A DNA stretch of 8,717 nt from a virus (IMGVR_UViG_2724679073_000005); one strand, 5' to 3'. Shown: positions 1 to 8,717, numbered from the stretch's first letter. Notes: generated by a model not told the origin, from the sequence alone. Made by a program: numbers and translations.

Positions 1-332
1 CTAACTTTGCAACAGTGCCACCGGATTTACGCGGTGAGTTTATCCGTGGTTGGGATGATGGGCGAGGTGTGGATGCGGGAAGGGTCATCTTAAGCATACA
101 GGGGTGGTTAACAGGAAGTCATTATCATAATATTCGGTCATGGGACGCGTGGGATAACACGGTATTGGTGCCAAATGACAGAGGGGGGGATAGTCTGTTG
201 TCGACAGATAACGCCGTCCGGCAAGGAGCGATTAATGGTAAATTTACCAGTCAATACAGAACGGAGTTATCTGGGGGGAATGAAACCCGCCCACGTAACA
301 TTGCCTTCAATTATATTGTGAGAGCAGCATAA
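1..332 (+). CDS. Tail fibre protein, C-terminal variable (receptor-binding) cassette in expressed orientation; 5' end truncated by window edge
   Basis: Frame open from position 3 to TAA at 330-332 (NFATVPPDLRGEFIRGWDDGRG...ETRPRNIAFNYIVRAA). No credible start or RBS inside the window; the GTG at 15 is an ORF-caller artefact. Stop overlaps the ATG of the downstream chaperone gene (TAATG). Shares the GEFIRGWDDGRG block and the C-terminal 16-aa motif with the three minus-strand cassettes. Confidence 0.8.
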   Translation, partial: NFATVPPDLRGEFIRGWDDGRGVDAGRVILSIQGWLTGSHYHNIRSWDAWDNTVLVPNDRGGDSLLSTDNAVRQGAINGKFTSQYRTELSGGNETRPRNIAFNYIVRAA

Positions 333-943
333 TGGATAATGCGATATTAAATAGCGAACTTATAGCCATACAGGCAGGAAACATTATCGTTTATAACTAT
401 GATGGTGGTAATCGGGAATATATTTCTGCATCAACTGAATATCTTGCTGTTGGCGTTGGTATTCCGGCAAATTCTTGTTTGGATGCTCCAGGCTCACATA
501 AAGCAGGTTATGCGATTCTCCGTTCAGAGGATTTAAGTTCATGGGAGTATGTGCCAGATCATCGTGGCGAAACTGTCTATAGCATTGACACTGGGAATCC
601 CGAAGAAATCACGGTGTTGGGTGACTATCCGGAAAATACAACCACTATCGCCCCGCTAACACCATACGACAAATGGGATGGAGAGAAATGGGTGGTTGAT
701 ACTGAGGCTCAACATAGTGCAGCTGTAGAGGCAGCAGAAACAAAACGTCAGTCATTGATTGATACTGCGATGGATTCCATTAGTCTGATTCAGTTGAAAT
801 TACGGGCTGGACGGAAGTTGACGCAGGCAGAAACCACGCAGCTTAACTCCGTGCTAGATTATATAGACGAGCTGAACGCGATGGATTTAACCACGGCACC
901 AGATCTCAACTGGCCTGAAAAACAACTTTCTACAGCCAGTTGA
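332..943 (+). CDS. tfa: Tail fibre assembly protein (Tfa; Mu U / P2 G / lambda Tfa-type chaperone)
   Basis: 203-aa ORF translationally coupled to the tail-fibre stop. Size and position are typical of Tfa. C-terminal region (...LTQAETTQLNSVLDYIDELNAMDLTTAPDLNWPEKQ) resembles the conserved Tfa C-terminal domain ending in a (N/E)WPE motif, as recalled from P2 G. Confidence 0.8.
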   Translation: MDNAILNSELIAIQAGNIIVYNYDGGNREYISASTEYLAVGVGIPANSCLDAPGSHKAGYAILRSEDLSSWEYVPDHRGETVYSIDTGNPEEITVLGDYPENTTTIAPLTPYDKWDGEKWVVDTEAQHSAAVEAAETKRQSLIDTAMDSISLIQLKLRAGRKLTQAETTQLNSVLDYIDELNAMDLTTAPDLNWPEKQLSTAS

Positions 944-948
944 TATAA

Positions 949-1467
949 TTAATCCGCCCTCACAATATAATTAAATGCAATATTACGAGGGCGGGTTTCT
1001 AAGCCAGCAGTACCTAAATTAGCTACGGACTGTTTATATGTTTTAAAAGTTCCATAATTAGGGGCTGGCAATCCTGCATCGCTTGTGTTCCCCCATCTGA
1101 TAACTCCCGTATTACCACTAGTAGCCCATGCCTCGTCAAAGTAGAAATTAATTGAGCGGTCAGTTGCTACGGTTGATTTTGACGGTAATCCGTGAGCATG
1201 ATCCTCCGTTGCATATCCTTGCTCGCTTAAAATAGAGCGACCAGAGTCAATCCCTCGCCCATCATCCCAGCCACGGATAAACTCACCGCGTAAATCAGGT
1301 AATTTTAACGTTGGGTAAACCTTTGCCAGATTTGGGTACTTTTCAGAAGAAAATGCTGCTCCGTTACATTTCAGCCACCCCGTTGGCGGAGTGGCTGAGG
1401 GCCACGGAACAGGTACGCCAACAGGCAATGCTGAGCCTTCCCCCAAACCAACGTTTTTATGCCGCCC
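949..1467 (-). CDS. Silent alternative tail-fibre C-terminal cassette A (promoterless 3' gene segment)
   Basis: Minus-strand frame open from 1467 down to stop at 949-951: GRHKNVGLGEGSALPVGVPVPWPSATPPTGWLKCNGAAFSSEKYPNLAKVYPTLKLPDLRGEFIRGWDDGRG...ETRPRNIAFNYIVRAD. No ATG or RBS; the TTG 'start' at 1444-1446 lies inside the crossover-site candidate. Convergent with tfa, 5 bp apart. Confidence 0.7.
   Translation of the reverse strand, partial: GRHKNVGLGEGSALPVGVPVPWPSATPPTGWLKCNGAAFSSEKYPNLAKVYPTLKLPDLRGEFIRGWDDGRGIDSGRSILSEQGYATEDHAHGLPSKSTVATDRSINFYFDEAWATSGNTGVIRWGNTSDAGLPAPNYGTFKTYKQSVANLGTAGLETRPRNIAFNYIVRAD
1256..1467 (-). repeat. ~210-bp repeat unit (copy 1 of 3) covering the site-proximal conserved part of cassette A
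   Basis: Near-identical to 1769-1981 and 2228-2441 by direct comparison. Encodes GEGSALPVGVPVPWPSATPPTGWLKCNGAAFSSEKYPNLAK(V/A)YPT(L/N)KLPDLRGEFIRGWDDGRG. Boundaries approximate. Confidence 0.8.
1438..1463. other. Candidate 26-bp serine-invertase crossover site (site A), hix/gix/cix-like
   Basis: TTCCCCCAAACC-AA-CGTTTTTATGCC. Left 12-bp half matches the invertase half-site pattern TTnTCnnAAACC in 8 of 12 positions; central AA dinucleotide; right half degenerate. Sits at the 5' edge of cassette A and overlaps the stop codon of cassette B. Confidence 0.55.
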
Positions 1468-1981
1468 TTACGATGTAATTAAATGCAACGTTGCGAGGGC
1501 GAGTTTCTGTACCTACATTTCCACTAATTTCACCATAACGTTTAACACTACGAGAGCTAATAGCTCGTAGTGAGGAAGGCACCTTATGACCGGGTTCGTC
1601 CGTTTTAACTATTCCCCCGTCACCGTATGTAGCTAGTATTCCTGGATTTACGCCTTCCCGTGCACTTCCTGCGGCGAGTCCGCCCCCTGTCCATAATTCC
1701 ATATAGTGTGCATGGTCCAAAATTGTGTGTGGCTGCCAATTAAGCAAAGCGCGGCCAGCATCCACCCCGCGCCCATCATCCCAGCCACGGATAAATTCAC
1801 CGCGTAAATCAGGTAATTTTAACGTTGGGTAAACCTTTGCCAGATTTGGGTACTTTTCAGAAGAAAATGCTGCACCATTGCATTTCAGCCACCCCGTTGG
1901 CGGTGTGGCTGAGGGCCATGGAATAGGTACACCAACGGGCAGCGCCGAGCCTTCCCCTAAACCAACGTTTTTATGCCGCCC
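1457..1981 (-). CDS. Silent alternative tail-fibre C-terminal cassette B (promoterless 3' gene segment)
   Basis: Manual translation shows the minus-strand frame open from 1981 to stop at 1457-1459 (~174 codons); the ORF track only reports 1457-1765 from an internal GTG. Begins GRHKNVGLGEGSALPVGVPIPWPSATPPTGW...PDLRGEFIRGWDDGRGVDAG and ends ETRPRNVAFNYIVRAA. Its stop codon lies inside the crossover-site candidate of cassette A. Confidence 0.7.
   Translation of the reverse strand, partial: GRHKNVGLGEGSALPVGVPIPWPSATPPTGWLKCNGAAFSSEKYPNLAKVYPTLKLPDLRGEFIRGWDDGRGVDAGRALLNWQPHTILDHAHYMELWTGGGLAAGSAREGVNPGILATYGDGGIVKTDEPGHKVPSSLRAISSRSVKRYGEISGNVGTETRPRNVAFNYIVRAA
1769..1981 (-). repeat. ~210-bp repeat unit (copy 2 of 3), cassette B
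   Basis: The cassette C-terminal-proximal ~65 bp is identical to copy 1; the site-proximal ~135 bp is about 90% identical. Boundaries approximate. Confidence 0.8.
1952..1977. other. Candidate 26-bp serine-invertase crossover site (site B)
   Basis: TTCCCCTAAACC-AA-CGTTTTTATGCC, one mismatch to site A, same orientation. At the 5' edge of cassette B, overlapping the stop codon of cassette C. Confidence 0.55.
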
Positions 1982-2441
1982 TTACGATATAATTAAAGGC
2001 AATATTACGAGGACGGTTTTCATTAGCTGTTGGCACGACACGAGAGGCGTCGAATCCAAGGTCATCGGTTTTGCCTATATCAGTTGTGTTATTCGGCATT
2101 CTCGCAGATCGTGTTCCTGCATCATAAAAAGCCCCTCTGATTGCATCAAAAGACATGCCAATCCCGCCATCTGCGAACCCCTCAATATTTCTTATTGCAT
2201 CCCCCTGTGAAGATAATAATTGTCGCCCGGCATCCACACCACGTCCGTCATCCCAGCCACGAATAAATTCACCGCGTAAATCCGGCAATTTATTAGTAGG
2301 GTAAGCCTTTGCCAGATTTGGGTACTTTTCAGAAGAAAATGCTGCTCCGTTACATTTCAGCCACCCCGTTGGCGGAGTGGCTGAGGGCCACGGAACAGGT
2401 ACGCCAACAGGCAATGCTGAGCCTTCCCCCAAACCAACGTT
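1971..2441 (-). CDS. Silent alternative tail-fibre C-terminal cassette C (promoterless 3' gene segment)
   Basis: Minus-strand frame open from 2441 to stop at 1971-1973. N-terminal 42 residues are identical to cassette A (identical DNA over ~135 bp), followed by a distinct middle and ENRPRNIAFNYIVRAA at the C-terminus. No start codon or RBS of its own. Confidence 0.7.
   Translation of the reverse strand, partial: NVGLGEGSALPVGVPVPWPSATPPTGWLKCNGAAFSSEKYPNLAKAYPTNKLPDLRGEFIRGWDDGRGVDAGRQLLSSQGDAIRNIEGFADGGIGMSFDAIRGAFYDAGTRSARMPNNTTDIGKTDDLGFDASRVVPTANENRPRNIAFNYIVRAA
2228..2441 (-). repeat. ~210-bp repeat unit (copy 3 of 3), cassette C
   Basis: The site-proximal ~135 bp (2305-2440) is identical to copy 1 (1321-1446); the distal part has diverged (KAYPTNK versus KVYPTLK). 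Boundaries approximate. Confidence 0.8.
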
Positions 2442-2449
2442 TTAGTCTT
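2424..2449. other. Candidate 26-bp serine-invertase crossover site (site C), adjacent to invertase gene
   Basis: TTCCCCCAAACC-AA-CGTTTTAGTCTT. Left half and core identical to site A, right half diverges. Lies 55 bp upstream of the invertase ATG, the usual position of the gene-proximal site in Gin/Cin/Hin systems. Confidence 0.55.
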
Positions 2450-2503
2450 AATCCCTACCTATACCAACGATGTATTTTTAACTAAACAAAGAGGTTGTTT
2501 TTC

Positions 2504-3076
2504 ATGCAAATTGGCTACATTCGTGTGTCAACAAATGACCAAAACACAGATTTACAAAGAAATGCACTGAACTGCGCAGGATGTGAACTGATTTTTGAAG
2601 ATAAAATAAGCGGAACAAAGTCAGCCAGACCAGGCTTGAAAAAGCTGCTCAGAACGTTATCAGAAGGAGATACGCTGGTTGTCTGGAAGCTGGATAGGCT
2701 TGGCAGAAGTATGAAACACCTTATCACGCTTATAGAGGAGTTGCGGGAAAAAGGTGTTAATTTCCGTAGTCTGACAGACAGTATTGACACATCAACACCC
2801 ATGGGGCGTTTCTTTTTTCATGTCATGGGTGCTTTAGCAGAAATGGAACGTGAATTAATTGTTGAGAGAACACTGGCCGGACTGGCAGCTGCACGCGAAC
2901 AGGGACGCATTGGCGGACGTCGCCCGAAGTTGACAAAAGAACAACATGAGCAAATAGCGAGGTTGATCGAAAATGGCTACAGCAGGAAACAGTTGGCAAT
3001 TATTTACGATATCGGTGTATCGACGATTTATCGTTATCATCCTGTAGAGAAGCGCCAAACTCAATCTGAGCTGTAA
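2504..3076 (+). CDS. Serine site-specific DNA invertase, Gin/Cin/Pin/Hin/Min family (resolvase-type catalytic domain plus C-terminal HTH)
   Basis: MQIGYIRVSTNDQNTDLQRNAL... carries the catalytic-serine motif (RVST), the conserved VVWKLDRLGRS and FRSLTDSIDTSTPMGRFFFHVMGALAEMERELI blocks, and the GRIGGRRPKLT hinge, followed by an HTH tail. ATG at 2504 has an AAGAGG RBS 10 nt upstream. Exact ortholog (cin, min, pin) cannot be decided by eye. Confidence 0.95.
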   Translation: MQIGYIRVSTNDQNTDLQRNALNCAGCELIFEDKISGTKSARPGLKKLLRTLSEGDTLVVWKLDRLGRSMKHLITLIEELREKGVNFRSLTDSIDTSTPMGRFFFHVMGALAEMERELIVERTLAGLAAAREQGRIGGRRPKLTKEQHEQIARLIENGYSRKQLAIIYDIGVSTIYRYHPVEKRQTQSEL

Positions 3077-3196
3077 TTCTAATGCCGCGTCGGTGTAATT
3101 TATCTTGATAGAATAGGTACATTTATCGCGCGGCACATCAATTCGATGTATCTAGCGCCTGCTGACCGCTAATGAAAACTGTTCTCGAAATGTTGT

Positions 3197-3215
3197 CCCT
3201 AGTCCGAGACTAGGG
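3197..3215. promoter_or_regulatory. Perfect 8-3-8 inverted repeat (CCCTAGTC-cga-GACTAGGG); candidate operator or late-promoter element
   Basis: 19-bp dyad in the non-coding leader between the invertase and the downstream operon. No U-run follows, so it is not an intrinsic terminator. A TANNNT hexamer (TAGGGT, 3211-3216) overlaps its right arm, positioned 3' of the dyad centre. Function unverified. Confidence 0.35.
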
Positions 3216-3511
3216 TATCACCTCTGGAAAGCATACGCAGAACCTTTTTTAACCCAGGGTGCCCAGCTTTTTTGCTGCTCGCCTTATTCGCAAAAATTAG
3301 CTCACATCCTGCGCTTTCAAGTGCTTTTCACTGCATAGCTGTGTTTTGTTCATTTGTCTATATGCGTACATAGCCTATTAGCATATTTTCTGCCCACTAT
3401 CGTTATTTATTGCAAGCTACAGGTTTTAATTAACAAAACCAGTGTGTGTGGAAATCACAAAGTGCATACCGTTCTCAAATGTTGTTCAACTTACTGTTGT
3501 ATAGGTAAAAA

Positions 3512-3775
3512 ATGACATTTTATGTACATATCGTGATGTTATCCCTTCTTGGTGGGGTGTATTCGTATTTGAGTGGGCTATGTGAAAACCGTTACGAGTC
3601 TTCATGCAAGAAATTGCTGGCCGAATGTATTTCCGCCGTACTTGCTGGCTTTATTGGCATGTATCTCGCGGAATATAAGGACATGAATGAAAGCCTTCAG
3701 AGCTGCATGGTTCTTATTTTCAGCGCCAATAGCAGGCTTATTATTGAAGGTTCCAAAAGTCGGTTGAATAGGTAA
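3512..3775 (+). CDS. Hypothetical small membrane protein (two predicted TM helices; possibly holin-like)
   Basis: 87-aa ORF with two hydrophobic stretches (VHIVMLSLLGGVYSYLSGL and LAECISAVLAGFIGMYLAEY) and a weak AGGT RBS. Co-oriented with and just upstream of the lysis/dar operon. Confidence 0.35.
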   Translation: MTFYVHIVMLSLLGGVYSYLSGLCENRYESSCKKLLAECISAVLAGFIGMYLAEYKDMNESLQSCMVLIFSANSRLIIEGSKSRLNR

Positions 3776-3820
3776 GTCTCTTATGCAACATAACCGGTTG
3801 AGAAGTTACTTTGCATACCA

Positions 3821-3846
3821 TTACCTCCTGACAACGTAGGAGGGAA
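3821..3846 (+). promoter_or_regulatory. Hairpin that sequesters the Shine-Dalgarno of the 3850 ORF
   Basis: CCTCCT (3824-3829) pairs with AGGAGG (3838-3843) across an 8-nt loop; the stem extends by two more pairs beyond one mismatch. The GGAGG RBS for the GTG start at 3850 sits inside the 3' arm. Confidence 0.35.
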
Positions 3847-3849
3847 CTT

Positions 3850-4179
3850 GTGCTTGACACACAGGAATTAGCTCCAGTTGCTATTGCGCTCCTGCTTTCA
3901 GTAATTGGTGGGATAGGCACGTTCCTGATGGATGTCCGAGACGGTCGCCAGTCTGGCAATTTGTTGGGATTGGTTACGGAGATCTTTGTTGCAGTGACAG
4001 CTGGCGCGGTGGCGTACCTATTGGGGCAACACGAGGGCTGGGAGTTATCAATTACGTACTTAATGGTAACGATAGCCAGCAATAACGGTCATGAGGTGAT
4101 TTCAGGGATGAAACGAGTGAATATCGATAGCATTCTGAATGTTCTTACAAGTTTGGTGAAAAAGGGAGGCGGGAAATGA
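3850..4179 (+). CDS. lydA: Holin-like small membrane protein (2-3 TM helices, basic C-terminus); candidate P1 LydA homolog
   Basis: 109-aa ORF with GTG start and a strong GGAGG RBS. Hydrophobic helices (LAPVAIALLLSVIGGIGTFL and LLGLVTEIFVAVTAGAVAYLLG) and a KKGGGK tail. First gene of a coupled operon leading into dar-like genes, as in the P1 lydA-lydB-dar operon. Symbol assigned by architecture, not by sequence search. Confidence 0.5.
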   Translation: MLDTQELAPVAIALLLSVIGGIGTFLMDVRDGRQSGNLLGLVTEIFVAVTAGAVAYLLGQHEGWELSITYLMVTIASNNGHEVISGMKRVNIDSILNVLTSLVKKGGGK

Positions 4180-4619
4180 TTGGCTGGGGTGTATGCGTTC
4201 TTGCGTTAGCCTTAGCCGATCGCTATTTGCTAAAACGCAAGGACATCACGCATTTAGAACTTGGTGATGTGGAAATTAAACCGGGTTTCATCCGGGTGCC
4301 GTTCAAATACCGGTCTAAATTCCCGTTTTTGCGCGGCGCAACGGTCAGATATTGGATCCGCGATGTTCAGAAGCCGACGACAGTGATTGAAGGCGAACAA
4401 CGTTGTTTGACGTCGGCTGAACAGGGCGAAAACAGTGAATGGTTGTACATACCCACTGAATATATGGGTAAAGGAGAGCGACTGTGGCATTTCAACGTCA
4501 TGGTTACGCATGGCGACTCGTTCATTAACCCGTTGTATCGGATTTTCCCTGTTACTCAGCAAATCCGCAGAAGTTACGTAATAAATCTCGCACAGGATGT
4601 GTCAGATGACGAAAAATAA
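4176..4619 (+). CDS. lydB: Membrane-anchored protein; candidate antiholin (P1 LydB-like)
   Basis: 147-aa ORF whose ATG overlaps the upstream stop (ATGA). N-terminal hydrophobic anchor (MIGWGVCVLALALA) followed by a soluble domain. Position between the holin-like gene and the hdf-like gene. Symbol assigned by synteny only. Confidence 0.45.
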   Translation: MIGWGVCVLALALADRYLLKRKDITHLELGDVEIKPGFIRVPFKYRSKFPFLRGATVRYWIRDVQKPTTVIEGEQRCLTSAEQGENSEWLYIPTEYMGKGERLWHFNVMVTHGDSFINPLYRIFPVTQQIRRSYVINLAQDVSDDEK

Positions 4620-5208
4620 GTATGCAACGGTCGATTTTGACCAGGTTAATGAAAAGGGGCTGAAATCCCTTATCGCGGCGATCAATAAAACCGGTGTTAC
4701 GGTAATTGAGGTTGACTCCAGCAACCGCGCAACAACGAAAGATGGCGTTAAAGTTAAAACCGCAAAGCTGGTTCTTAACGACGGACAAATTCTTGCCATA
4801 CAGGTAAACGATACTGGCGATATATCGTCTGTGAGGCTGAATGGAAAAGCTATTCCTAACGCTCAGTCGCCGGATATCAAGACGCTTGGTACCGTCATGG
4901 GGCAAGCGGCCCGCAAAAACTCCGCAAAATTCCAGAAATCACTGATCGCCAAAGCGAAACGTGTTGCCAATCCGGTAGACAAGAAACCGGCAGTAAAATC
5001 CAACTTTCAGCGCCTGCAAGAGGCAAAACAGCGGAATGCTCAGGTGGTTGCCGCTTATAAATCAGCGCAGAACTCGGTGTCTTTCAATCAACAGCAGATC
5101 ACTGATTTGCGGGCGAAGCTGGATAAGGAGACAGGCCGACTCAATAACGAAAAGGCCCGAAATGGCGAACTCAAACGCCGTCTTAAGCAACTGAAAGCAG
5201 GAAATTAA
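4606..5208 (+). CDS. hdf: Hdf-like protein (paralog of a DarA internal domain); putative capsid-associated antirestriction accessory protein
   Basis: ORF track start is 4597, but the ATG at 4606 has an AGGA RBS 8 nt upstream and is the likelier start. Shares a ~70-aa domain with the next protein (LNDGQILAIQV...TLGTVMGQAARKNSAKFQ versus LSDGQTISILF...TLAQVTMKLANLAEKNSAKFQ), then a basic coiled-coil tail. Size (~22 kDa) and position match P1 hdf. Confidence 0.55.
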   Translation: MTKNKYATVDFDQVNEKGLKSLIAAINKTGVTVIEVDSSNRATTKDGVKVKTAKLVLNDGQILAIQVNDTGDISSVRLNGKAIPNAQSPDIKTLGTVMGQAARKNSAKFQKSLIAKAKRVANPVDKKPAVKSNFQRLQEAKQRNAQVVAAYKSAQNSVSFNQQQITDLRAKLDKETGRLNNEKARNGELKRRLKQLKAGN

Positions 5209-5209
5209 C

Positions 5210-7129
5210 ATGGAACAGTTCAATATCAATAAAGGGGTGACGATCAAGCCTGGGCTTGACGTGCTTCCCCCGCCAGTGACTGATGATGAATATCGCGCAT
5301 TAATGGCCGGTGAGGACCGCTATCTGATGACGGAATCCAACACCCTGGAGGAAATCGAGGCTACGTTCTTCTATGACACGCCGATCCACTGGTGTGCTAC
5401 GGATTTACTGGAGGCGATTAGTTCTACTCGTTTGCAGTTACACCGGACCATGCAGGCATTTGTCCGGGCATTGAACCAGAAGCTGAATGGTACCGGAATC
5501 TCTGCGGGGAGTGATAAAACGGGGGATGTGGCCCAGAGCGGCGCGCGCGCGATCGGCGGTGCTGAAATTGGCCGGGCACGTAACGTTAACGGGCTGCCGG
5601 TCCTGCCAGCCATTATTCCGCTCAGTGATGGTCAGACTATCAGCATTCTGTTTCATAGCCCGACAGCGGAAAACCGGATCACCAATAGCGATACGCTGGT
5701 TGCTTTCCAGTTCTTACTGAATAAAAAAGACGTTACTCACACCGTTGCTCCGATGAGTGGACGTGATATGACGCTGGCGCAGGTCACCATGAAACTTGCC
5801 AACCTTGCAGAGAAAAACTCGGCAAAATTTCAGCGTGCGCAGAAGAAGAAAAAAGCCCTTGTTGATGAAATAACCCAACTACAGGCTGACAGTGACCAGA
5901 AAGAGGATGCCATGAGCGACCTCGTGGATCAGGTGGCAGCGGTAGAAGGGCAGAAGGTAGATCTGGAGCAGAAAATTAACGCTGTTGCATCGGAAGCGGA
6001 TTCTCTTTATGAAGAGAATGAGCGTTTGCAGACGGAGATTGATCAGCTCAATCGCACTGGTGGGCGCGATACCATTGCTCCTGCGGGGATGACTGGTGGA
6101 CACTCTCGCGCGATGACGGATCGCCTTGCCAGTATCAAAAATCGTATGCATATGAACGGGGAAGTGACGCTCAGTAATGGTGCATCAATGAAGCAATTCA
6201 TTGAGGACGGCGAAGGGTATATCCAGTTAACCGATTCGGATGGCAGCGTGTACATGATCAAGGCTAAATCCATACAGGGTGTGGACATGGCAGATGCGAT
6301 CGGCAAGCTGTTTAAAGCCTATAAAGCGGGTAATGTATCGGAATACCTGGTCCAACCAGAAGAACATAAACCGGAAAACGTCGAACCTGAACCAGCGGAG
6401 GATACCGGTAGCTCTTCGCCTGAACCAGAAGTCTCTGTAGGTGCATATCGATATGCCCTGCAAATGCGTCCGGCGGCCCCTGGCGCAATACCTGAAGGTA
6501 ACAAAGCAATTCTGCCGCGCCCTGATGAAGGTGACCCGTATTATGAATATGCACGCTACGGCATTGCTACTTACGATACCCCGCTTTCTGATCAGCAAAT
6601 GAGTGAGTACGACCTGAAGTTATTGCCTCGCGAGGATTCTTTCGACTTCCTGGCGAAGACACTTACTAATGGTCCGTTTGGCAAATATGCACAAAAAGCT
6701 CTGGAGCTGGCCACCAGCTCACCAGACGAGTTCCGCGTAATGCTGAAAACTCAGTTTCAAAAAACTTTCCCCAATATTGCGTTTCCGGGGGGCGCTGGCA
6801 CCGAGAAAATGGTGCAGAGCATGATCAATGCATTGCAGGCCGAAGTCGGTGAGATTACTCAGCCAGAACCTGCCCCGGCACAGCCTGATGAAACGGTTAG
6901 CGAAGCAGATGCAGAGGCTAATAAAGCCATTGAATATCTCAATAACGTGATGGATATGCAAAGCACTGACATGGCGGAGATCCGTAACGCCCGGGGCAAT
7001 GTCCGGGAAGCGATTGCAGCCCTTCAGGCTGCCGGACGTTTTGAGGAAAACGAAGAGCTGGTTAATGGCGCTGCTCGCCACCTGGCTGATCTGCTGGTAG
7101 CAATCCAGAAAGCGGGGGTAGCGGCATGA
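5210..7129 (+). CDS. darA: DarA-like protein (phage internal head / defence-against-restriction protein)
   Basis: 639-aa ORF (~70 kDa) with an AGGA RBS. Contains the hdf-like domain, a long heptad-rich coiled-coil (about residues 190-285) and Pro/Glu-rich linkers. Size, flanking hdf-like and 121-aa genes, and position downstream of the tail-fibre invertase match the P1 darA operon as recalled from the literature. Not verified by search. Confidence 0.6.
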   Translation: MEQFNINKGVTIKPGLDVLPPPVTDDEYRALMAGEDRYLMTESNTLEEIEATFFYDTPIHWCATDLLEAISSTRLQLHRTMQAFVRALNQKLNGTGISAGSDKTGDVAQSGARAIGGAEIGRARNVNGLPVLPAIIPLSDGQTISILFHSPTAENRITNSDTLVAFQFLLNKKDVTHTVAPMSGRDMTLAQVTMKLANLAEKNSAKFQRAQKKKKALVDEITQLQADSDQKEDAMSDLVDQVAAVEGQKVDLEQKINAVASEADSLYEENERLQTEIDQLNRTGGRDTIAPAGMTGGHSRAMTDRLASIKNRMHMNGEVTLSNGASMKQFIEDGEGYIQLTDSDGSVYMIKAKSIQGVDMADAIGKLFKAYKAGNVSEYLVQPEEHKPENVEPEPAEDTGSSSPEPEVSVGAYRYALQMRPAAPGAIPEGNKAILPRPDEGDPYYEYARYGIATYDTPLSDQQMSEYDLKLLPREDSFDFLAKTLTNGPFGKYAQKALELATSSPDEFRVMLKTQFQKTFPNIAFPGGAGTEKMVQSMINALQAEVGEITQPEPAPAQPDETVSEADAEANKAIEYLNNVMDMQSTDMAEIRNARGNVREAIAALQAAGRFEENEELVNGAARHLADLLVAIQKAGVAA

Positions 7130-7491
7130 CACTATCAGCTATTGAGTTAATGGATCTCAGCGATAAGTTGGATGCTCTGATGTCCAAAGCGGCTACCGCG
7201 AGTGGCATGGAGTTGCTGGATATCAGCGATGAAATTGACCAGATCATGCAACAGATGGGGTACGGCGCGTCCGGCGGCAGTAGTGGCGAGGAAAAACAAC
7301 CTTCGGTACATGATGGTGTGCCAAAACTGGTTGCTGATTTCCTGGCTGATAAATTCGTCGATCAGAGCACAGATGCATTTATCGGTACCTTGCAGGACTT
7401 GAGTCAATATGTTGGCACATACATCGACCTGGACCAGGTTAAACAGCACACGGCGGCATGGATAGCCGCCAACATTGAAGAGGCAGCATAA
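7126..7491 (+). CDS. ddrA: DdrA-like small acidic protein
   Basis: 121-aa ORF (~13 kDa) with ATGA overlap to the upstream stop. Acidic, with a Gly/Ser linker (GYGASGGSSGEE). Position immediately after the darA-like gene. Confidence 0.5.
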   Translation: MTLSAIELMDLSDKLDALMSKAATASGMELLDISDEIDQIMQQMGYGASGGSSGEEKQPSVHDGVPKLVADFLADKFVDQSTDAFIGTLQDLSQYVGTYIDLDQVKQHTAAWIAANIEEAA

Positions 7492-7503
7492 GGCGTAACA
7501 GGG

Positions 7504-8717
7504 ATGAGCTTAAGCGATCAGGTGGTAATGGCCACCAGCATAGAAACGCTGATCGAGCTGCTTAAGAACCTGCCCGATTATGGGCGGGTTTCGTATGTGG
7601 TGACAGCGAAGGGAGACGAGGTAAAAACAGCGTTTGATATCGTCGATGCCTCAGCTCTTTTGGTATCCAATACTCTGGATGGGAAAATTAATCCTGACTA
7701 TCCCCAGGAACTTCAGCCGCGCGACCGGACCCGCGCATCCAGCCTTCTTCAGGTTAACCAGATATCCAAAGATTTGCGGCCTGCTCAGCTTACTGATTCC
7801 GGTTTATCCAGCCATGGTGCGCCGATAATTGGTGAGGACAATGCCGTTGAGTCAGGTAATGGACGGACCATGGGGATCATCAAAGCCTATCAGGACGGCA
7901 ATGCGGATCGGTATCGTGAGTACCTGATTGATCATGCGACCGAATTCGGCATACGACCTGAAAAGGTTGAATCAATGACGGCTCCGGTACTGGTGCGCCG
8001 CCGGTTAACTAAGGTTGACCGCGTTCAGTTTGCCAAGGACTCAAATATTTCTGATCTTCAGGAAATGGCAGCCAGTGAAAAGGCTTTTGTTGATGCCGAC
8101 AGCATAACACCGGCGATGATGGCGCTTTTTAACCCGTCAGAAAGCGGAGATCTGCTTAGCCGCAGTAATGACGCGTTTATTCGCGGATTTATGACGCAAG
8201 TTGGTGCCACACAGGCGGCTGGCCTTGTAACTGAAGATGGGCGACCAACACGGCAACTTGTAGACCGTATACAAAACGCGATCTTTGCCAAGGCATATAA
8301 GGATGCGCGCCTGGTAAGGATGGTTGCAGAAGAACCTGATCCGGATATGCGTAATGTTCTGACGGCGCTTAATGCGGCAGCCAATGATTTTGTCCAGATG
8401 CAGGCTTTATCAGGAGAAGCGCACAAGCAGGCTGTGACAACTATTGTTGATGGCATTGAGACAGCGGATAGCCTCGATAAAAAGGCGCTGGCGGCATTGA
8501 AAGATGCGGTAGACCTGGTAAGGCAATCGAAGGAGTCAGGCCAGCATATTACCGATGTTATTGCTCAGGGGGATATGTTCAGCGAAACGGCCCCGGAAGT
8601 GAAAGCACTCGCGTTGTTCATCGTCGCGAATAACCGTAGCGCGAAGCGTATGGCCACCGCCTTTAAGTTGATGGCTCAACGTATCAATGATGAGTTACAG
8701 GGCACTGTTGCAAAGTT
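7504..8717 (+). CDS. ddrB: DdrB-like large protein, N-terminal ~404 codons (3' end beyond window)
   Basis: Checked codon by codon: frame open from ATG at 7504 to the window end with no stop. The ORF track misses it because no stop is reached. Follows the ddrA-like gene as in the P1 darA operon. Confidence 0.5.
   Translation, partial: MSLSDQVVMATSIETLIELLKNLPDYGRVSYVVTAKGDEVKTAFDIVDASALLVSNTLDGKINPDYPQELQPRDRTRASSLLQVNQISKDLRPAQLTDSGLSSHGAPIIGEDNAVESGNGRTMGIIKAYQDGNADRYREYLIDHATEFGIRPEKVESMTAPVLVRRRLTKVDRVQFAKDSNISDLQEMAASEKAFVDADSITPAMMALFNPSESGDLLSRSNDAFIRGFMTQVGATQAAGLVTEDGRPTRQLVDRIQNAIFAKAYKDARLVRMVAEEPDPDMRNVLTALNAAANDFVQMQALSGEAHKQAVTTIVDGIETADSLDKKALAALKDAVDLVRQSKESGQHITDVIAQGDMFSETAPEVKALALFIVANNRSAKRMATAFKLMAQRINDELQGTVAK

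Follow-up and report, generated by a model that had tools for sequence, protein, structure and literature searches.

The locus raises two questions: whether three directly repeated 26-bp sequences adjacent to a serine invertase gene are crossover sites of a DNA inversion system, and, as serine invertases need inverted sites, where the partners of these sequences could lie. The window, i.e. the whole stretch of 8,717 nt that was analysed (viral record IMGVR_UViG_2724679073_000005), is the complete contig LOJL01000032.1 of the draft assembly GCA_001601655.1. The original prediction, made from the sequence alone, held that the three sites share a left half and an AA core in a single orientation, and that two of them embed the stop codon of the neighbouring cassette. 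All three were confirmed in the sequence at the predicted positions, on one strand and around a common AA core, as follows.

1438-1463, minus strand: site A, TTCCCCCAAACC AA CGTTTTTATGCC; core AA at 1450-1451; junction of cassettes c05 (stop) and c11 (start)
1952-1977, minus strand: site B, TTCCCCTAAACC AA CGTTTTTATGCC; core AA at 1964-1965; junction of cassettes c06 (stop) and c05 (start)
2424-2449, minus strand: site C, TTCCCCCAAACC AA CGTTTTAGTCTT; core AA at 2436-2437; junction of the invertase flank and cassette c06

Read on the coding (minus) strand, site A is GGCATAAAAACG TT GGTTTGGGGGAA, and site C forms the invertase-proximal border of the invertible region. The 20-mer shared by the sites, searched for on both strands with up to three mismatches, gives three matches against 0.00 expected from 200 shuffles. 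A looser search for site centres on both strands of the window returned neither a fourth site nor an inverted one. [quoted passage not shown]

The sites separate open coding cassettes, and the following genes and gene parts make up this portion of the window.

20-332, plus strand: cassette c10, 3' part only, cut at nt 20 by IS26; its own mix site and N-terminal block are missing
332-943, plus strand: tail-fibre assembly (chaperone) gene tfa; Caudo_TAP domain PF02413, E 3e-30
949-1449, minus strand: cassette c11, 166 codons plus stop; Collar domain PF07484, E 7e-15
1457-1963, minus strand: cassette c05, 168 codons plus stop; Collar domain, E 6e-15
1971-2435, minus strand: cassette c06, 154 codons plus stop; Collar domain, E 3e-15

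Cassettes c06, c05, and c11, in that order, make up the invertase-side arm in the window. Each is open from one site to the TAA in the next and has no start codon of its own, and c11 is expressed only when fused to the constant part of the tail-fibre gene. Such a fusion is seen for c06 in a related plasmid (locus L002), where it is joined in frame to the constant part and annotated as a 504-aa phage tail protein. The only tip with a cognate chaperone gene is c10. The TAA stops fall within the right half-sites of A and B, at 1457-1459 for the cassette at 1457-1963 and at 1971-1973 for that at 1971-2435. The predicted fusion of stop codon and crossover site is true here and also in the published mix right half-sites.

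A 281-nt direct repeat, comprised of the conserved N-terminal block of the cassettes and their conserved C-terminal end, encloses the sites (1234-1514, 1748-2028, and 2220-2500). Because the sites are embedded in this longer repeat, their repetition alone is no proof that they are recombination sites. That status is drawn instead from their identity to published sites and from natural inversion isomers.

The prediction proposed alignment of the 26-mers to the sites of known invertases, and the match is to the Min system of plasmid p15B, whose six crossover sites are listed in PMC3241671 (Table 3). Site C is identical to mixMl''L' at 26 of 26 positions, and site B is likewise identical (26/26) to mixMr''N', mixO''P', and mixP''Q'. 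In site A a left half as in mixN''O' is followed by a right half as in mixMr''N', a hybrid that is to be expected, as half-sites reassort at every inversion. In relatives of the window the constant gene part (Sc) has at its end the site TTCCCCCAAACC AA GGTAATCAAGAA, also written TTCCCCCAAACCAAGGTAATCAAGAA, which equals mixQ''R'. Taken together, the three sites are, with high confidence, mix sites of a Min-type multiple DNA inversion system carried by a P1/P7-like phage-plasmid. The crossover-site reading is right. The Min system, first described on p15B, is already known, and there is nothing new in the sites or in the mechanism. Among related plasmids, pMCR_SCKP-LL83 has a 5-kb segment that is reported to match the p15B min region at 99% identity across 92% of the segment (PMC5786510); this plasmid is locus L011 of the present comparison set.

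Natural isomers provide the second line of evidence. Plasmids p160070-MCR (L002) and pMCR_SCKP-LL83 (L011) are both 97,393 bp long, and when cut at the site cores they give one and the same set of eight modules (0 mismatches over 4,924 nt), arranged in a different order and orientation. For each junction a breakpoint interval was defined as the span that leaves room for the change from one parental sequence to the other. Seven junctions are changed between L002 and L011 and every allowed interval contains the core, as predicted for exchange at the sites, with a resolution of 7 nt and not of the 2-nt core. The two tightest intervals are of 7 nt (TTGGTTT, -1 to +6) and the others of 30, 30, 54, 54, and 165 nt; on the window, the 7-nt intervals correspond to 1445-1451, 1959-1965, and 2431-2437. 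The prediction had set the core against the GEFIRGWDDGRG-coding block as the place of exchange. The widest interval ends at +129 and the block lies at +163 to +198, so that none of the seven junctions reaches it.

With regard to the junctions of the window itself, L002 has c05|c11 and c06|c05, both of which are broken in L011, and L011 has the junction of the invertase flank with c06, which is broken in L002. In L002 cassette c06 is joined to the constant part, and the exchange at site C is bracketed to AAACCAA, 2431-2437. A comparison of L002 with L009 as a second pair was set aside, as it gave negative intervals at several junctions; these two loci differ by point substitutions and are not isogenic. 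Inversion with exchange at the sites thus occurs in the close relatives L002 and L011. PacBio reads from a prophage of E. coli EC958 have shown inversion at an almost identical site, GAGAGATAAACG TT GGTTTGGGGGAA (PMC4134206).

The same data bear on another source of the isomers, namely RecA-dependent homologous recombination within the approximately 200-bp N-terminal blocks, the 26-mers then being no more than conserved coding sequence. The 281-nt repeat that encloses the sites would offer room for such exchange, and exchange within a conserved block has indeed happened here: for 130 nt the N-terminal block of the window's c11 matches that of c06 exactly, and is in this unlike c11 elsewhere. 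Against this, all seven junctions of the isogenic pair bracket the core, two of them being confined to 7 nt, and polymorphisms 6 nt downstream and directly upstream of the core stay linked to their own module. The sites, moreover, equal experimentally defined mix sites and lie next to a dedicated invertase gene and a homologue of a known enhancer. As a source of the isomers homologous recombination is rejected on account of exchange intervals as narrow as 7 nt, and is considered highly improbable. The mosaic of c11 and c06 does imply that the region also evolves in part by homologous exchange within the conserved blocks. The isomers themselves are best read as products of site-specific inversion at mix sites.

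The invertase gene and the element presumed to stimulate it lie immediately beyond site C.

2504-3076, plus strand: Min-type serine DNA invertase gene, 190 aa; Resolvase domain PF00239, E 2e-51, and HTH_7 domain PF02796, E 3e-15
2522-2593, strand not applicable: presumed recombinational (Fis) enhancer, by homology to the P1 cin enhancer

The protein carries the motif YIRVS(9)T, with the catalytic serine at position 9, is 74% identical to Cin of phage P1, and is an exact member of the UniRef cluster Q05517_ECOLX, 'DNA-invertase'. Hin residues K47, K/R48, K/R51, Q151, R154, and L155 are conserved only among Fis-dependent invertases, in which they contact Fis and the enhancer (PMC3798978). With an offset of one residue, K46, K47, R50, Q150, R153, and L154 of the window invertase match them, so that the basic helix-B residues and the Q, R, and L residues typical of the Fis-dependent group are all present. 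The original prediction expected an enhancer within the 5' part of the invertase gene without locating it. Positions 2522-2593 align ungapped with the 72-bp enhancer annotated in the P1 record (cin nt 19-90), with 58 of 72 positions identical and the same codons covered, in support of that expectation. By this homology the segment is the putative Fis enhancer. [quoted passage not shown] Individual Fis sites, sought as 15-mers of the form G-N13-C, were dropped, as the first candidate is not conserved in P1. Beyond the 3' end of the invertase gene follow holin genes, lydB, DarA-family genes, and ddrA, the gene order after the invertase being that of P1/P7-like phage-plasmids.

The type of recombinase also bears on a mechanism like that of the R64 shufflon, in which a tyrosine recombinase would act on asymmetric sfx-like sites. 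Both the shufflon and the present region undergo multiple inversions that swap C-terminal cassettes. The adjacent recombinase, however, is of the small serine type (PF00239 with HTH_7), the sites are 26-bp imperfect palindromes of Din type, and no tyrosine recombinase gene was found in the window. A shufflon-type mechanism is therefore given practically no credence, and the invertase of the Min type remains the recombinase to which the sites are assigned.

The question of the partners can be addressed from the relatives of the window. Of the 5,426 complete genomes of E. coli, 1,699 gave megablast matches to the region, as did 238 plasmids in PLSDB, and maps of sites and cassettes were drawn for 12 plasmid loci. 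These 12 relatives carry from 3 to 9 mix sites per locus, in each case with exactly one Sc-type site and exactly one invertase-proximal site. Without exception the plus-strand sites lie to the left of tfa and the minus-strand sites to its right. The order c10-tfa-c11 is invariant and never split in the window and in the eight plasmids with both cassettes intact; in the other four, frameshifted or truncated copies resembling c10 and c11 occupy their position. The remaining cassettes occur in many orders and in either arm. It had been predicted that each site can recombine only with a partner outside the window, and this agrees with the maps: the window holds direct repeats only, and inverted sites are found to the left of tfa in the 12 relatives. 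Those left-hand sites include the site at the end of the constant gene, in a region that would lie beyond the left end of the window.

A model of the switch can be proposed from this architecture. The tail-fibre gene consists of a constant 5' part (Sc), located outside the contig and ending in a half-site, and the invertible region is a string of promoterless C-terminal cassettes, each supplying a Collar domain and a variable tip. On the coding strand each cassette opens with the half-site GGTTT(G/A)GGGGAA and closes with the TAA in the left half of the next site. Every cassette faces the central c10-tfa-c11 module, from which it follows that sites are inverted between the arms and direct within one arm. 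The invertase, together with Fis bound to the enhancer in the invertase's own 5' coding region, would cut at the central AA/TT of one site in each arm, and rotation of the cut ends would swap the tails of the two arms. Only the cassette adjoining Sc would be translated, in frame through ...VLDY-L-GLGEG... (VLDYLGLGEGSALPV), and a population of phage genomes would in this manner display alternative receptor-binding tips. By analogy with the family, the reaction is expected to depend on Fis and to cleave exactly at the AA, deletion between direct repeats is not expected, and this particular copy is probably active.

The tail-swap model was explored by breadth-first search under a single rule, inversion between one site in each arm. 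It converts L002 into L011 in 4 inversions. For six sites it allows 240 configurations, the same as the number of isomers published for p15B with six sites (PMC2481393), and for nine sites 80,640.

IS26 marks both ends of the present copy. The first 19 nt and the last 17 nt of the contig are the GGCACTGTTGCAAAGTTAG end of IS26 in inverted orientation, an identity that agrees with the annotated IS26 in locus L005, and the relatives match positions 20-8700 only. IS26 truncates cassette c10, the site of which is gone, and ddrB; the contig contains neither Sc nor the opposite arm. Neither of the two IS26 junctions of the window was found in any PLSDB record. The three sites could be orphaned or re-oriented relative to their partners. 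At the extreme the copy would be a relic, its mix sites genuine and its switch frozen, the opposite arm and Sc having been deleted or re-oriented by IS26. The same inverted IS26 end at both ends of the contig, the restriction of matches to positions 20-8700, and the loss of the site and N-terminal block of c10 are all consistent with such an event, and loss of the invertible region mediated by IS26 is documented in other P1-like plasmids (PMC6906374). Conversely, the invertase ORF is intact and identical to a widespread protein, and all three cassettes are open. If IS26 had simply inserted, the opposite arm would be merely 820 bp further off and still inverted. A frozen relic is accordingly regarded as possible yet rather unlikely, and its sites would in either event be mix sites of the Min type.

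The IS26-bounded 8.7-kb piece carries one arm, the invertase gene, and the putative enhancer. It is suggested, tentatively and with less than even confidence, that what goes beyond the known system is the expansion of Min regions (to nine sites and tips) together with this piece, perhaps separated or moved from Sc. If undescribed, the two would be a modest addition to a known system.

The wider interest of the region is that of a textbook programmed DNA inversion, by which alternative tail-fibre tips widen the host range of a phage. Once the system is correctly identified, its promoterless cassettes will not be mistaken in annotation for independent "phage tail protein" genes, and the differences between assemblies of P1-like plasmids in this region are explained. 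In typing, Min isomerisation is all that sets many clinical P1/P7-like plasmids apart, mcr-1 carriers among them, and such plasmids are not to be scored as separate structures.

Among known systems the closest is the Min system of p15B, a plasmid of E. coli 15T-, reportedly described by Sandmeier, Iida, Arber, and co-workers in 1990-1992 (GenBank X62121). The likeness extends to sites that are identical or built from the same half-sites, to Collar-domain tips as cassettes, and to the gene order, in which the invertible region is followed by the invertase gene, whose 5' end faces it, and then by the lyd genes. A pseudo-cin remnant lies 3' of the invertase gene, and the P1 record notes homology to p15B nt 7147-7408. 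The difference is one of number and completeness: p15B has six mix sites and 240 isomers, whereas relatives of the window have 3-9 sites and the contig itself three, in one arm cut by IS26.

Phage P1, with Cin and the C segment, belongs to the same phage family and shares the flanking genes lydA, lydB, darA, R, and S, 26-bp sites with an AA core, a 74% identical invertase, and an enhancer with a homologous segment at the same codons here. Unlike the present region it relies on no more than two cix sites, and its two alternative S/U gene sets each come with a chaperone of their own. It is the 3' end of cin, overlapping cixL, that faces the segment in P1, whereas here the 5' end of the invertase gene does so. 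The Pin system of the P segment in the e14 element has site halves much like those here (pixR is TTCTCCCAAACC AA CGTTTATGAAAA), and the switch of the EC958 Phi2 prophage has a 3' site ending in ...AAACG TT GGTTTGGGGGAA (PMC4134206). Both Pin and EC958 Phi2 have C-terminal cassettes with a Collar domain and a conserved block of about 200 bp after the site, but each has two sites and a single invertible segment.

Like the present system, with its putative enhancer, Hin and Gin have a serine invertase, conserved residues in contact with Fis and the enhancer, and a Fis-dependent enhancer that sits within the 5' portion of the recombinase gene, some 100 bp away from the closest site. They have two sites each, and Hin flips a promoter rather than coding cassettes. 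The R64 shufflon (Rci) is alike in that multiple inversions pick one C-terminal end for a constant gene (PMC2481393); it differs in its tyrosine recombinase, in the type of site, and in its target, a pilus adhesin instead of a phage fibre. The system of the window is Min as known from p15B, or a very near relative of Min, and belongs to the Din family alongside Cin, Pin, Gin, and Hin. All that distinguishes it from the p15B region as published is the number of cassettes among the relatives and the IS26 truncation of the present copy.

Among plasmids that are otherwise alike, the number of alternative tail-fibre cassettes ranges from 3 to 9, with three crossover sites in L003 and L005 versus nine in L002, L004, L008 and L011. 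Deletion is disfavoured by invertases. Since the cassette count varies to this extent, cassettes must nevertheless be lost or duplicated over evolutionary time through events between sites or blocks in direct repeat. Several relatives have cassettes with a frameshift or a premature stop, at 7963 in L007, at 5331 and 5844 in L010, at 7945 in L012 and at 8149-8442 in L001; these could be true pseudogenes or assembly errors in the repeat region.

Within the window, cassettes c11 and c06 have conserved N-terminal blocks (1320-1449 and 2306-2435) that are identical at 130 of 130 positions, and in 9 other plasmids the c11 block is of a variant different from the window's. Taken together, these sequence comparisons indicate that cassettes have exchanged sequence inside the conserved block, by gene conversion or by homologous recombination.

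Only a single tail-fibre assembly gene (332-943 in the window) is present for up to nine alternative tips across the window and loci L001-L012. This gene lies directly 3' of cassette c10, and is antisense to the constant part of the tail-fibre gene whenever c11 ends the arm next to that part, e.g. in L002 (p160070-MCR) and L011 (pMCR_SCKP-LL83). Tips other than c10 may do without a chaperone, or its gene may lie elsewhere.

Both contig termini carry the same IS26 end:

1-19 and 8701-8717, inward-facing and inverted relative to each other: IS26 terminal inverted repeat GGCACTGTTGCAAAGTTAG

From these inward-facing ends it follows that two oppositely oriented IS26 copies flank an 8,681-bp P1-like piece. 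They cut short two genes, c10 from nt 20 and ddrB after nt 8700. A different insertion lies among the ddr genes of one relative, and is absent from the window:

L001 (pKFu022_2) 14527-15735: gene for a TnpB-family RNA-guided endonuclease, separating ddrA from ddrB

Downstream of the Min-type invertase gene lie traces of a second, cin-like invertase gene:

3208-3384, minus strand: pseudo-cin, a degraded remnant that keeps about 176 nt from the start of the gene
~3295-3366: second enhancer-like stretch, inside the pseudo-cin remnant

Between the invertase stop and pseudo-cin, a 36-nt segment (3160-3195) is 81% complementary to 2000-2035, and its plus strand resembles the C-terminal end of a cassette (TANEN...). 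This segment may be a fossil cassette at the substitution boundary.

The 1,342-nt stretch around pseudo-cin is collinear with lydB-lydA-lydC-cin of P1 at 90.6% identity, and a stop stands in place of the catalytic Ser codon (MLIGYVRI*TNEQ...). The remnant also agrees with the homology to p15B nt 7147-7408 noted in the P1 record. Judging from this remnant, the sequence suggests that a Cin-type switch was replaced by min together with the M region.
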